Shown here: in pieces, positions 27,568-31,502 of the stretch
Position numbering within the stretch: the first letter of the stretch is position 1
How the letters are laid out: every line of letters begins with the position of its first letter
From: Bacillota bacterium
GTDB lineage: Bacteria > Bacillota > Clostridia > Saccharofermentanales > DTU023
DNA length: 64,000 nucleotides
NCBI GenBank assembly: GCA_023622515.1
Contig: JAMNZB010000057.1
Coordinates: forward strand, 16,243-80,242
Direction of reading: 5' to 3'
The notes under the pieces: model-generated
The model's input: only the letters and a program-made list of their open reading frames with translations
The model's database searches: none
What the model was told of the DNA's origin: nothing
Translations under genes and position numbers: made by a program

Positions 27568-29685
27568 TTGAAAAGGAAAGGTACTCTTTTAGTCGTTGCA
27601 CTTTTGTTGCTGGTACTTGTTATTGAGCTTGGTCTTTTATATAGAGAAAATATAACTGCAGAGCCGGTATACCCTCTTACAGGAATTATTACAGCGAATC
27701 CCTCCTGTAATATGAGGCGCGATCCCAACACTTCACGGGAGGCCTTACGTGAGCTGAAAAAAGATGTAAAGGTAACCGTCTTGGCTGAGGTAGAGGGGCA
27801 AATGGTGGGCAGCAACCCCCTTTGGTATGAGATTAGCTATGGAAATATCCATGGCTATGTCAGTGCCGAATTTGTTCGCCTGGAATATGAGATTCAGTTG
27901 CCGGACTACGGAATCCCTCAAGTCAACCTGCCGGCAACGGCGGATTTTCGTGCAGGCTTGGAGCAAAGCGGTTTTCCGCAAGATTATGTTAACGCCTTAA
28001 TGGCCCTGCATGAAAAATATCCGAATTGGAAGTTCACTCCGCTTTTTGTAAATTATAGTTTTGAAACAGCTGTCCGCGGAGAGTTCCGCCCCGGCGTCAA
28101 CATGGTAACAGCATCAGCTCCACCGGAGTATAAATCAAAAGCGGATGCCGATTTTAACTATGTGACCAATACCTGGTACCAATATGAACCGGGCTGGGTC
28201 GGAGCCTCAAAAGAGCTGATTGCCTTCCAGATGGATCCGCGCAACTTCCTTAATGAAATTCAAATTTTTCAATTTGAGAATCAAAGATATAACGGGGAAA
28301 TCCCCTATTTACAAGGACTCAATAATATTGTTCGCCATACCTTCATGGAACAATATCCTATCCAATATTTGGATACTGAAGGTGAGACCCGTACACTGGA
28401 TTCATCCTACCCCATGCTTATTGAAGAAGCAGGACGAAGTTCAGGTGTCAGCCCCTATCATCTGATTTCAAGAATTTTACAGGAAGTAGGCCCGCAGGGC
28501 TCCTCCTCGGTACGAGGTGATTATCTTGACATGAAGGGCTACTACAACTTCTTTAATATCGGTGCTTTCGGGGGTTCGGATCCACTCTACATGGGCCTTG
28601 TTACAGCTCGTGACGGGATTAAGGGATACTCTGAAATGAAGAATTCAAAGTTTCTCTTTCCCTGGATAAATCCTTCAAGAGCCATCAGCGGGGGAGCCAT
28701 TTTCCTCGGAGAAGACTATATTAACGTAGACCAACATACCCTATATTTACAAAAGTTTAACCTGGCCTCGCGCTATACCCGCCCTTTCACTCATCAATAC
28801 ATGGGTAATGTCCTGGCCCCGGAATATGAAGCCATTGATGTATATAAGGCCTATGAAAACATGGGTGCCCTGGCCGATGCCAAAGAATTTGTCATCCCTG
28901 TATTTTTAGATATGCCGGATGTTGTACCCTCGCCAACCGGAGGGGGGAATGTAAATAACTGGCTTAAGGCAATCTACATTAATGGAGAGCCGTTAACCGA
29001 TTTTCAGGCGAACCGCTATGAATACAAATTAAATATCAAGGCAGCCGGTAAAGGCTTGTTTGTTGAAGCCTTACCTTGGAATAGTGATGCCGCTGTCTAT
29101 GGCAACGGTGTATACCGTTTAGGTCCCGGTATCAATGAAATTATCATTCAGGTAAATTCACCGGCCGGAACGGCACGAAATTACCGCCTTAGCATCTATC
29201 AGTCAGAACATACTGCCCATCAAAATCCGTCCGACCTACCGAAAGTACAAAGTCATAATTATCAAATTAGCGCATTAGGCTACTTATACGGTGTTGACCC
29301 CAAGGTGGGGGCCAATGCAAGTGAATATCTGATTAGCCAGTATTCTCTGCCGGATAGCTATCGGCTAGTAGTGGTTGCGCAAGATGGCCAAACCCCGATA
29401 GAAAGAGCCGGCACAGGCTCTGTTCTTCAATTGAGGCGAAATGACCTGATTGTCAATGAGTTTCCTATTGTTATCCTGGGAGATATCAATGGTGATGGTT
29501 TAATCAATTTTGAAGACCAATTAATTTTACGCGAGCATATTTTAAACATGGGGAACAGCCTGACAACGGCACATAACTTAGCAATGGACATCAATCAGGA
29601 TGGCTACGTTAATATTATCGATCTCAAAATGTTAATAGACCATGTTAGAGGAGTATCAACGATTAACCAGTATTTAGGACTCTAG
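27568..29685 (+). CDS. Secreted/membrane-anchored multidomain protein: SH3b, putative glucosaminidase-type peptidoglycan hydrolase, cadherin-like beta-sandwich, C-terminal dockerin
   Basis: 705 aa starting at TTG, with an N-terminal TM/signal anchor. Domains read by eye:
- SH3b-like: NMRRDPNTSREALRELKKDVKVTVLAEVEG...WYEISYGNIHGYVSAEFV
- central hydrolase-like region: SGVSPYHLISRILQEVG ... TLYLQKFN
- cadherin-like: LKAIYINGEPLTDFQANRYEYKL
- two dockerin calcium loops: GDINGDGLINFED and MDINQDGYVNIID. Confidence 0.65.
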   Translation: MKRKGTLLVVALLLLVLVIELGLLYRENITAEPVYPLTGIITANPSCNMRRDPNTSREALRELKKDVKVTVLAEVEGQMVGSNPLWYEISYGNIHGYVSAEFVRLEYEIQLPDYGIPQVNLPATADFRAGLEQSGFPQDYVNALMALHEKYPNWKFTPLFVNYSFETAVRGEFRPGVNMVTASAPPEYKSKADADFNYVTNTWYQYEPGWVGASKELIAFQMDPRNFLNEIQIFQFENQRYNGEIPYLQGLNNIVRHTFMEQYPIQYLDTEGETRTLDSSYPMLIEEAGRSSGVSPYHLISRILQEVGPQGSSSVRGDYLDMKGYYNFFNIGAFGGSDPLYMGLVTARDGIKGYSEMKNSKFLFPWINPSRAISGGAIFLGEDYINVDQHTLYLQKFNLASRYTRPFTHQYMGNVLAPEYEAIDVYKAYENMGALADAKEFVIPVFLDMPDVVPSPTGGGNVNNWLKAIYINGEPLTDFQANRYEYKLNIKAAGKGLFVEALPWNSDAAVYGNGVYRLGPGINEIIIQVNSPAGTARNYRLSIYQSEHTAHQNPSDLPKVQSHNYQISALGYLYGVDPKVGANASEYLISQYSLPDSYRLVVVAQDGQTPIERAGTGSVLQLRRNDLIVNEFPIVILGDINGDGLINFEDQLILREHILNMGNSLTTAHNLAMDINQDGYVNIIDLKMLIDHVRGVSTINQYLGL

Positions 29686-29755
29686 CCTATAGCCTGCAGC
29701 CTACAGCTTAAGGGAGGGCTGGATTTACCTCTTTAAACTAGAAGGAGTTACTCTT

Positions 29756-30925
29756 ATGGATACAAAAAGTAGAAGAAAGCACGGCTTATTACTAGGGCTT
29801 TGCTTGCTGGCCTTGCTGTTGGCACAGATTCCGGTAGAGGCCCAAGGCGTTGTCGGTATGTCATCTCCCGATTTCGTTGAACGCGGTTATAGCATGACGG
29901 TGACGGTTACCGCTACAGGCGCTTCTGCCGGTGTTAACGGTGTAGAATTATACCTGATTTACGATGCCGCCAATTTTCAGTTTGTGAAAGTTAATTCAAC
30001 ATTCCTGGGTACTTTGGGCGGTTCTGTTACATCGCCTGCGGATGGCGGACTATTTGAACTGCAAGATACAACGGGTGGAGTTATTCAACTTTTAGCGGTC
30101 GATATTCCCTACACACCGGCAGATAATGTGATTGCCGTTTTGGAGTTTACAGCAAAGGCGGATGCCAATATTGGCCCTATCAGCTTTCAATTTAAAGATG
30201 GTTCTTTCGTACAAACCGTTAACGGCCGTGTTAATGCTACCAACGAAAAACTGGTTATGGAGATAACCGGTCAGACGGAAGCCCCTATTTCAGATACCCC
30301 CCTGCCTCCGGCAGAGCAGACAGAAGCTGCTGCAGAACCCGGTATTGACGTTCCCTATGATCCGAACAATCAAATAGCACCGGAAGGGCAGGGGACAGGA
30401 GATGGAGATGATTATAATATTGGTGCTTTAAACTCCGACCCTGCAGCAACGACGAAAGAAAGACGTACAGAGATAGTAAGTAAGCCGACCCTACCTGACA
30501 GCAAACGCACGGAGAGAACTGAAGAGGAAACCAAAACCCCCTTGCGTTCTGTTACCGGCCAAGCTTTGTATGCTCCGGAAGACGGCATGCCCTTAAGTAA
30601 AATTCCTGAAGGCTTCCAAGGTGGTATGGAAAAAATCCTGGGAGTCAACGTTCCGGTGGCAAAGTCTTCGGAGAAGGAGCTGAGCCTATATTATCTGAGA
30701 AATAGCCGCGGTGATGAGGATTTCTATACCTATGAAGAATCAACAGAGCGTTTTAAGTTCTATGATTTAGAAAAAGAAGCCGAGAAAGAGAGTGAGAGTA
30801 AATCGCGCTTTAGTGCCAAAGGGGGAAACGGAAACACCTGGAAAATTCTTTTAGTCTCTCTAATTGGCCTTTCAGCCCTGAGTATTATGATTTTCACCAT
30901 TTATCGGAATATACGTTTGAGATAA
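29756..30925 (+). CDS. Cohesin-like domain protein with C-terminal membrane anchor
   Basis: 389 aa with a signal peptide (LLGLCLLALLLAQIPVEAQG). The ~140-aa domain follows the cohesin pattern (YSMTVTVTATG...VNGVELYLIYDAANFQFVKV...VIAVLEFTAKADANIGPISFQF). An acidic, Pro- and Thr-containing linker and a C-terminal TM helix (WKILLVSLIGLSALSIMIFTIY) follow. Confidence 0.55.
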   Translation: MDTKSRRKHGLLLGLCLLALLLAQIPVEAQGVVGMSSPDFVERGYSMTVTVTATGASAGVNGVELYLIYDAANFQFVKVNSTFLGTLGGSVTSPADGGLFELQDTTGGVIQLLAVDIPYTPADNVIAVLEFTAKADANIGPISFQFKDGSFVQTVNGRVNATNEKLVMEITGQTEAPISDTPLPPAEQTEAAAEPGIDVPYDPNNQIAPEGQGTGDGDDYNIGALNSDPAATTKERRTEIVSKPTLPDSKRTERTEEETKTPLRSVTGQALYAPEDGMPLSKIPEGFQGGMEKILGVNVPVAKSSEKELSLYYLRNSRGDEDFYTYEESTERFKFYDLEKEAEKESESKSRFSAKGGNGNTWKILLVSLIGLSALSIMIFTIYRNIRLR

Positions 30926-30946: not shown

Positions 30947-30982
30947 CAGCCGGTTCCACAATGCTAGCCGGCTGCTTTTTTC
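30947..30982 (+). terminator. Rho-independent terminator after the cohesin-like gene
   Basis: Stem CAGCCGG / CCGGCTG with a 14-nt loop, followed by CTTTTTTC. Confidence 0.6.
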
Positions 30983-31001
30983 TGTTATGATACGTTAGAT
31001 A

Positions 31002-31502
31002 GTGGCTAGTCAAAAGGAGAAATTAATGCCGGAGCCCGGAAACAAGAAGCAAGCTGGTCTCAAAGCTTGGAAACATTTTTTACTAGACAAGGAGATGGTG
31101 CGTTATTTAATCCTGGGTGTCTTGACCACCTTGGTTGATTTTTTTCTGGCAACCATCTTGAGGGAAATCTTTGGGGATGAACATAAGCTTGTGTTCAACA
31201 GCATAGCGGTTGTTTCAGCCATTATCTTTTCCTATATCGGTAGCCGGCTTTTTGTCTTTAAGTCAAAAGGACCGATCGTACAAGAATTCAGCCAATTCTT
31301 TTTTTCCCGTATCGGGATTTCTTTTATTTTCAGCAATGGTACAATTTGGTTTCTGGAAGATGTCCTTAATTTCACAAAAAAAGTACCCATCATCAGGCTG
31401 GCTTGGTCTAAAATTATAGGTGCCGGCCTGGTTGTAACTTTAAACTATCTGGTAGGTAAATTTCTTGTCTTTCGGAAGCGGAAGATAAAAAAAGAAATGT
31501 AG
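31002..31502 (+). CDS. GtrA-family membrane protein
   Basis: Four predicted TM helices with a GtrA-like start (VRYLILGVLTTLVDFFLATIL) and end (LNYLVGKFLVFRKR). The start codon is uncertain: GTG 31002, ATG 31026 or a later ATG. Confidence 0.7.
   Translation: MASQKEKLMPEPGNKKQAGLKAWKHFLLDKEMVRYLILGVLTTLVDFFLATILREIFGDEHKLVFNSIAVVSAIIFSYIGSRLFVFKSKGPIVQEFSQFFFSRIGISFIFSNGTIWFLEDVLNFTKKVPIIRLAWSKIIGAGLVVTLNYLVGKFLVFRKRKIKKEM

Follow-up and report, generated by a model that had tools for sequence, protein, structure and literature searches.

The window, a stretch of 64,000 nucleotides from contig JAMNZB010000057.1 of the Bacillota assembly GCA_023622515.1, carries on its forward strand two adjoining genes that code for a dockerin-bearing cell-wall hydrolase and for its probable membrane anchor. 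Gene 1 (27568..29685) encodes a secreted protein of 705 residues that combines an SH3b domain, a catalytic domain of glycoside hydrolase family 73 (GH73), an immunoglobulin (Ig)-like domain, a small domain referred to as X and a dockerin, as indicated by its open reading frame, by Pfam, NCBIfam and Protein Data Bank (PDB) matches and by an AlphaFold model. Its start codon is TTG, with AGGAGA upstream. Gene 2 (29756..30925) encodes a type-I membrane protein of 389 residues with one cohesin, identified from its open reading frame, Pfam, an AlphaFold model and a fold search, and starts with ATG preceded by GAAGGAG. This ribosome-binding site is carried by the 70-nt spacer between the genes (29686..29755). 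In a preliminary description of the same DNA, the membrane protein was proposed to tether the hydrolase. The two open reading frames, the 70-nt gap and the four motifs quoted there are all found in the sequence and its translations.

The hydrolase model was built from an alignment of 51 sequences and has a mean predicted local distance difference test score (pLDDT) of 89.3 and a predicted template modelling score (pTM) of 0.71. It contains an N-terminal helix (residues 3-24), an SH3b barrel (37-105), a catalytic region of helical and mixed structure (122-445), an Ig-like sandwich (466-545), a small domain (560-634) and a three-helix dockerin. A signal peptide was read from the sequence at residues 1-31 (27568..27660), with a probable cleavage site between ITA and EP. 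The N-terminus begins with Lys and Arg residues, followed by a hydrophobic run of 19 residues and a conserved Ala-Glu junction whose Ala, at position -1, is kept in close relatives. Classic AxA signal-peptidase sites occur in the distant ones. The signal peptide is presumably cleaved, in which case the mature enzyme would be free unless retained; alternatively, the segment may be an uncleaved signal anchor. A transmembrane anchoring similar to that of SagB is disfavoured, short of proof, by the conserved Ala at -1 and by the AxA sites of the distant relatives.

The SH3b domain, a cell-wall-binding module (residues 37-105; 27676..27882), is recognised over residues 48-103 by the Pfam family SH3_3 (PF08239) with 35.4 bits against a cut-off of 27. 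A PDB fold search returned the Clostridium perfringens SH3 domain 2krs with a template modelling score (TM-score) of 0.80, and also 2kt8. Downstream, residues 122-445 (27931..28902) form the GH73 catalytic region, including a helical lobe at its N-terminus. The NCBIfam model SagB matches it with an expectation value (E) of 7e-11, far under that model's own cut-off. A phmmer search of the PDB retrieved SagB (6fxp/6u0o), AtlE (4pi7) and Atl (6fxo) of Staphylococcus aureus, with E from 7e-10 to 2e-6. With Foldseek (E 1e-12 to 2e-8), the matches were SagB 6fxp (E 1e-12, TM-score 0.75), the SagB-SpdC complex 6u0o, Atl 6fxo (TM-score 0.76), AtlE, Acp 5wqw from C. perfringens and LytB. The residue E306 (28483-28485), found in the motif LQEVG, is aligned to Glu155 of 6u0o_B in LLETG, which we take to be the catalytic residue of SagB. 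E306, Y326, N327 and Y411 are invariant across the 51 aligned sequences. By its sequence, the catalytic domain is a divergent branch of GH73 that is recognised only via NCBIfam SagB and comparisons with the PDB. Its predicted fold and catalytic Glu make of the protein a putative peptidoglycan N-acetylglucosaminidase, and no other GH73 could be detected in the assembly.

The C-terminal tail of the hydrolase consists of three modules. The Ig-like (cadherin-like) beta sandwich (residues 466-545; 28963..29202) is formed in the model, and the Pfam family Cadherin-like (PF12733) matches residues 471-544 with 16.9 bits, under its cut-off of 24.2. Most hydrolase relatives have a precomputed Pfam Cadherin-like match, and the fold search with this region gave only weak protocadherin and Rib matches. 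The X domain (residues 560-634; 29245..29469) lies directly before the dockerin, is modelled with a pLDDT of about 87-96 and matches no Pfam family. A home-made hidden Markov model found it in every examined dockerin-bearing relative of three families of the order (f1, f2 and f4); it is absent from three hydrolases of the fourth family, f3 (L053, L054, L056). It is reminiscent of the X modules found together with type II and type III dockerins.

The third module is a type-I-like dockerin (residues 637-693; 29476..29646), which the Pfam family Dockerin_1 (PF00404) matches over the same residues with 38.5 bits against a cut-off of 22.9. It is composed of two repeats of about 22 residues, each with an EF-hand-like calcium loop (D1, N/D3, D5, D12), namely DINGDGLINFED at residues 639-650 (29482-29517) and DINQDGYVNIID at residues 674-685 (29587-29622). 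D639, D650 and D685 are invariant across the 51 aligned sequences. The helices of the model (648-660, 667-673 and 683-693) adopt a fold that matches the dockerins 4fl4_D (TM-score 0.87, root-mean-square deviation 1.4 Å), 5lxv_B (TM-score 0.84) and 4uyp_B. At the positions usually involved in recognition the two repeats are unlike (F-E..R-E versus I-I..I-D), which hints at a single binding mode for this dockerin. In genera g4, g5 and g10, the symmetry of the two repeats is nearly perfect. The SH3b-like domain and the two canonical calcium loops announced for this protein in the preliminary description are thus confirmed by Pfam scores over the cut-offs and by fold. For its cadherin-like sandwich, the model shows a beta sandwich and most relatives have the Pfam match, but the score of this protein itself falls below the cut-off.

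The model of the cohesin protein rests on an alignment of only 11 sequences and has a mean pLDDT of 67. A signal peptide was identified from the sequence at residues 1-29 (29756..29842), where the model has a helix at residues 3-22; it would be cleaved between VEA and QG. The cohesin beta sandwich follows (residues 33-171; 29852..30268; pLDDT 80-90). The Pfam family Cohesin (PF00963) matches residues 44-162 with 28.3 bits against a cut-off of 24.1, and with 30.4 bits in the genome search, a small margin. The six best PDB matches of the model are all cohesins (including 6kg8, 6kgc, 4ums, 6kgf and 2w1n), with E from 2e-7 to 1e-6. The TM-score on the target ranges from 0.45 to 0.71, with 0.65-0.71 for the five single-module entries and 0.45 for 2w1n, a double module of 228 residues. 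The six structures originate from C. acetobutylicum CohA2, the P. cellulosolvens ScaB type-I cohesin and the C. perfringens GH84C non-cellulosomal cohesin. Judged by its match to solved cohesins, the predicted domain would be a nine-stranded jelly roll. A cohesin fold, which the preliminary description had read from a sequence pattern, is therefore predicted for 29756..30925 by the fold matches as well as by Pfam.

The cohesin is connected to the membrane-proximal part by an acidic, Pro- and Thr-rich stalk of about 85 residues (174-259; 30275..30532) that is modelled without secondary structure. Its pLDDT is mostly below 55 and largely below 50 (residues 174-197, 209-246 and 248-259), and its length and composition vary between relatives. 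By simple geometry, the stalk could reach a few nanometres as a coil and about 30 nm at most when stretched, a range that matches a Gram-positive wall in scale. The protein ends with a transmembrane helix (residues 361-387; 30836..30916), present in the model and corresponding to a hydrophobic stretch conserved in relatives, and a short basic tail, RNIRLR. The signal peptide, the C-terminal helix and this tail point to a type-I topology in which the N-terminus is outside and the cohesin lies at the far end. The signal peptide, acidic linker and C-terminal anchor of the preliminary description are thus recovered. The cohesin protein has few close relatives: six were found in a word-indexed protein search, five loci in genome contigs and three in metagenome contigs. 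A more divergent alignment contained no stretch conserved enough for scanning, and an exhaustive profile search returned 169 cluster representatives.

Two conserved modules of the pair had been overlooked previously. One is the X domain and the other is a juxtamembrane beta domain of the cohesin protein (residues 263-336; 30542..30763), with the motif IPxGF...LYYL...FYTY...RF. It is modelled with seven strands and a pLDDT of about 80. In relatives the consensus is IPxGF...LYYL...FYxYD...F.PY, and the domain is conserved in the genus as well as in other families, once or twice per protein and often after a Cadherin-like domain (also L013, L014 and L035:8393-10363). Pfam yielded no matching family even at E 10, and a profile search of the PDB yielded no relative. 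Of the 169 library relatives, most match the cohesin protein mainly through this domain, which is conserved more widely across the order than the cohesin. Ten of these library relatives were sampled, seven of which have a Cadherin-like and/or cohesin match at E <= 0.01; the cohesin was matched in six and exceeds the Pfam cut-off in two. In genus g2, the partner has very long repeats rich in Thr, Glu, Ser and Pro (L025, L026). No convincing juxtamembrane domain was detected there, with none in L025, which includes an X run of masked bases, and, in L026, no more than a 51-bit match that covers Ser/Thr-rich sequence.

The distribution of the two modules among genomes carries most of the weight for their partnership. 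The assembly (2.01 Mb in 78 contigs, 90% complete) contains exactly one Pfam cohesin and one Pfam dockerin, both in this gene pair. Cellulosomes and amylosomes comprise scaffoldins with several cohesins and many dockerin enzymes; here one cohesin faces one dockerin whose cargo is a peptidoglycan hydrolase, in agreement with the label 'non-cellulosomal' given previously. Among 61 sampled genomes of the same family, a dockerin was found in 53, and exactly one in 49 of these 53. Nearly all single dockerins of the family sit in an open frame of about 650-870 residues, i.e. this enzyme, and no genome of the family in which a cohesin was found has more than one. A cohesin search over 151 genomes missed the window's own cohesin, which was found by the single-genome search, so that cohesin tallies from the large sample are lower bounds.

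The adjacency of the genes is also conserved. The order dGTPase-like HD protein, YfbR-like HD protein, hydrolase, cohesin protein, GtrA, FolC, tetratricopeptide repeat (TPR) protein and ThrC-like protein is kept in the genus, in the family and in public metagenome-assembled genomes (MAGs) recorded as uncultured Oscillospiraceae, Eubacteriales or Clostridiales. Farther away, in more remote genera and three further families of the order, the gene directly after that of the hydrolase still encodes a protein that combines a signal peptide with a hydrophobic, transmembrane-like segment close to the C-terminus. The succession of the hydrolase and a protein with signal peptide, cohesin and transmembrane segment was seen in all four sampled families. 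A cohesin match (Pfam, E <= 1e-3) was obtained in the neighbour of the hydrolase in 8 of 10 cases, six above the cut-off, plus two minimal cohesin-transmembrane proteins of 256-270 residues in family f3. The Ig-X-dockerin tail was found in 87 of the 151 genomes of the order (35/37 in f1, 31/37 in f4, 9/38 in f2 and 11/38 in f3). By our own count of the Pfam cohesin matches in these 151 genomes, 55 of 75 lie just downstream of such a tail on the same strand.

Genus g3 illustrates the loss of the system. In two genomes (G006 and G015), the hydrolase ends after the catalytic domain (442 and 430 residues) and lacks the Ig-X-dockerin tail. The locus is otherwise unchanged (HD-hydrolase-GtrA-FolC-TPR) but the cohesin gene is gone, and no dockerin or cohesin was found anywhere in either genome. 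Taken together, conserved adjacency, one module of each kind per genome and joint loss make a strong genomic case that the dockerin and the cohesin would be cognate. Four genomes of family f4 (G110, G055, G141, G089) contain several separate gene pairs in which a dockerin protein is followed by a cohesin protein. In that family, adjoining cognate pairs seem to be a recurrent layout that extends beyond the GH73 enzyme.

These data are probably best accounted for by a housekeeping autolysin that is held on the surface of its producer through a membrane anchor with one cohesin. The hydrolase would be exported by its signal peptide, and the SH3b domain would give it affinity for the wall. The partner would sit in the cytoplasmic membrane through its C-terminal helix, with the small beta domain just outside and the flexible stalk carrying the cohesin into the wall. 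The dockerin would plug into this cohesin in a calcium-dependent manner. Leashed in this way, the autolysin would stay on the producing cell instead of escaping into the medium, and would have a limited reach in the wall. Likely roles would be housekeeping wall work such as the separation of daughter cells and the trimming of glycan strands. The tether proposed in the preliminary description is thereby supported as far as computation reaches, the physical binding and the physiological role being inferred.

Several observations weigh against this interpretation. The catalytic assignment is the first concerned: the Pfam family Glucosaminidase (PF01832) had no match at E <= 1 in the hydrolase and none in the assembly. 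The glucosaminidase-like centre noticed previously thus stands on its GH73 fold, its catalytic Glu and its matches to SagB, AtlE and Atl, but not on that Pfam family. In genus g2 (L025, L026), the dockerin has a degenerate second calcium loop, e.g. NVVQDAELNVLD. The joint loss in genus g3 was probably a single evolutionary event and counts as one observation. The covariation of dockerin and cohesin distances, evaluated by a partial Mantel test on 19 genomes with the GH73 domain controlled for, is unspecific (r = 0.31). The control pairs gave 0.31 (X-cohesin), 0.24 (Ig-cohesin) and 0.36 (dockerin-X), so the covariation is no stronger than in controls and says nothing specific on dockerin-cohesin pairing. 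Finally, the GH73 enzyme of genus g11 has no dockerin, and the adjoining gene still encodes Cadherin-like and juxtamembrane domains. At one such locus, L057 (G031), the neighbour contains two juxtamembrane domains and no cohesin match was detected in it; in G034 and G037, the neighbour protein has a sub-threshold cohesin-like start. The conservation of the partner beside an enzyme devoid of dockerin suggests that it may have a role beyond holding the dockerin.

Such a role is central to the first alternative, in which docking would be regulatory. The partner would position or activate the GH73 domain near the membrane in order to trim or release nascent glycan strands at a set distance, as an analogue of S. 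aureus SagB-SpdC, and the juxtamembrane domain would aid substrate or partner recognition. It accords with this proposal that SagB and the SagB-SpdC complex are the nearest solved relatives of the catalytic domain, and that, across the order, conservation is higher for the juxtamembrane domain, which also persists in genus g11, than for the cohesin. Nevertheless, the ordinary autolysins Atl, AtlE and Acp match about as well as SagB. The partner has no polytopic membrane domain of the SpdC kind, the signal peptide of the enzyme appears cleavable, unlike the transmembrane anchor of SagB, and a disordered stalk of about 85 residues sets the cohesin far from the membrane, which suits a leash more than a rigid ruler. 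Regulatory docking is accordingly unlikely, though worth keeping in mind. A bolder version carries a similarly low probability. The juxtamembrane domain would be a new module that senses the wall or the divisome and, together with the length of the stalk, sets where and how deep the docked GH73 cuts. The pair would then be a widespread Clostridia counterpart, built from cellulosome parts, of autolysins controlled by a membrane partner (SagB-SpdC, FtsEX-PcsB).

According to a second alternative, the two proteins would not bind each other. The dockerin would be a calcium-stabilised tail or a binder of wall polymers, and the cohesin-like protein a separate surface or adhesion protein that shares the operon. 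The lack of specific covariation and the partner-like genes beside dockerin-less GH73 genes in genus g11 are what such independence would produce, and the discussion in PMC4081043 reports lone dockerins without cohesins in many non-cellulolytic microbes. This alternative would leave without explanation that nearly all genomes of the family have a single copy of each module, as well as the adjacency across four families, the loss of both modules together in genus g3 and the canonical folds and calcium ligands that the modules have kept. Independence of the two proteins is for these reasons quite improbable. It is harder still to believe that the pair is a weapon for contact attack on neighbouring bacteria or a device acting only in spore formation or germination: microbial competition was suggested for dockerin-linked lysozyme-type modules of rumen metagenomes (PMC6487960) and Spo0A is present in the genome of the window, but the hydrolase is the only detectable GH73 of a small genome of 2.0 Mb, its fixed neighbours (pcrA, HD hydrolases, folC) are housekeeping genes, without an immunity gene or signs of a mobile element among them, and Spo0A also occurs in the g3 genomes that lost the tether, which makes it uninformative on a link with sporulation.

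The leashed autolysin resembles several known systems in part. In C. thermocellum, surface proteins of the OlpA/OlpC type carry one type-I cohesin each, bind enzyme-borne type-I dockerins and hold single enzymes on the cell. They are anchored in the wall by surface-layer homology (SLH) modules, and their cargo consists of plant-polysaccharide enzymes drawn from a pool of dozens of dockerins. In contrast, the anchor described here is a C-terminal transmembrane helix accompanied by a juxtamembrane domain, and its sole cargo is the peptidoglycan hydrolase encoded next door. The C. perfringens GH84C system, whose structure 2w1n is among the six best fold matches, is another instance of cohesin-dockerin docking outside the cellulosome that involves glycoside hydrolases of a Firmicute. 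Its modules join secreted toxins and enzymes that degrade mucins and glycans, whereas the present pair involves a membrane anchor and an enzyme directed at the cell's own wall. SagB-SpdC (6u0o), Atl, AtlE and Acp have the same catalytic fold and catalytic Glu. SagB, a GH73 enzyme, is moreover kept at the membrane by a partner protein that resides there, an idea also proposed here for the hydrolase. However, SagB has its own transmembrane anchor and binds a polytopic CAAX-type protein via membrane helices, whereas here an extracellular dockerin-cohesin plug would be placed on a long stalk. With a single transmembrane helix and no CAAX/Abi-type domain in the partner, only the catalytic domain is common to the two systems.

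The closest precedents come from ruminococci. Ruminococcus bicirculans was noted to have a lone dockerin and a lone cohesin "associated with a GH73 enzyme" (Wegmann et al. 2014, cited in Ze et al. 2015, PMC4611034), and one dockerin-bearing GH73 is listed for each strain of Ruminococcus albus (Dassa et al. 2014, PMC4081043, Table 3). As in the window's genome, these cases concern Clostridia that are non-cellulolytic or poor in cohesins, with one dockerin, carried by a GH73, one cohesin and no cellulosome, and judging by record names the broad lineage is the same. As given in Ze et al. 2015 and Dassa et al. 2014, they are one-line genome notes, without a domain map of the partner, an analysis of synteny or distribution, or an experiment. 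Dockerins on lysozyme-type modules were also described in rumen metagenomes (Bensoussan et al. 2016). A 2025 cellulosome review treats sortase and SLH anchoring only, and transmembrane or membrane-anchor terms retrieved nothing relevant from its text. No functional study of such a cohesin-dockerin GH73 pair was found in the literature searched. The preliminary description was thus right that such pairs are little characterised, with the addition that the GH73 case is already noted for R. bicirculans (PMC4611034). This kind of pair is already in print, uncharacterised, and the window adds one more example and no new principle; the juxtamembrane domain is its modest extra.

Cellulosomes are the best-known setting of the cohesin-dockerin connector, which protein engineers use widely. 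A real tether would give this connector a housekeeping use as well, in the control of the cell's own autolysin. This use would be common, given the 87 genomes of the order with the tail and the several hundred sequence clusters of the enzyme family in gut metagenomes. The system would provide a simple natural pair of one cohesin and one dockerin for studies of specificity, and a way into the study of cell-wall turnover in gut Clostridia, which are abundant and mostly uncultured. It would also give a reason to characterise the juxtamembrane domain.

The two genes form one unit that is probably transcribed together. The RNA fold of the spacer is not better than that of shuffled sequences (z +1.05), and the terminator scan found no terminator-like site in it. 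Directly after gene 2 lies a terminator-like hairpin (30947..30984, forward strand) with a 9-bp stem, a 10-nt loop and a subsequent U run, which folds with -14.7 kcal/mol (z -2.4 against shuffles). The consensus terminator scan missed it because its loop exceeds 8 nt. The hydrolase gene has a weak terminator-like site on its upstream side. The absence of an intergenic terminator or stable structure, together with the hairpin and its U run, suggests a two-gene transcript. An AGCCTNN repeat of about 3.7 copies (29684-29710) begins at the stop codon of the hydrolase gene.

Vertical inheritance within an uncultured Clostridia lineage (records named Oscillospiraceae, Eubacteriales or Clostridiales MAGs) is the best explanation for the history of the pair. 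Its neighbourhood is of the housekeeping kind, the GC content is flat, and neither an immunity gene nor signs of a mobile element were found around it. Cargo of a mobile element or prophage was rejected on the basis of this flat GC content and of the fixed housekeeping synteny. The next gene is, as previously described, of the GtrA family (Pfam, 59.6 bits). It spans 31002-31502 when read from a GTG codon at 31002, but the start is probably the ATG at 31026, which has AAGGAG 7 nt upstream. In genus g5 (L041:371-2209, reverse strand), GtrA and FolC are fused in a single frame of 613 residues with the domains GtrA_DPMS_TM, Mur_ligase_M and Mur_ligase_C.

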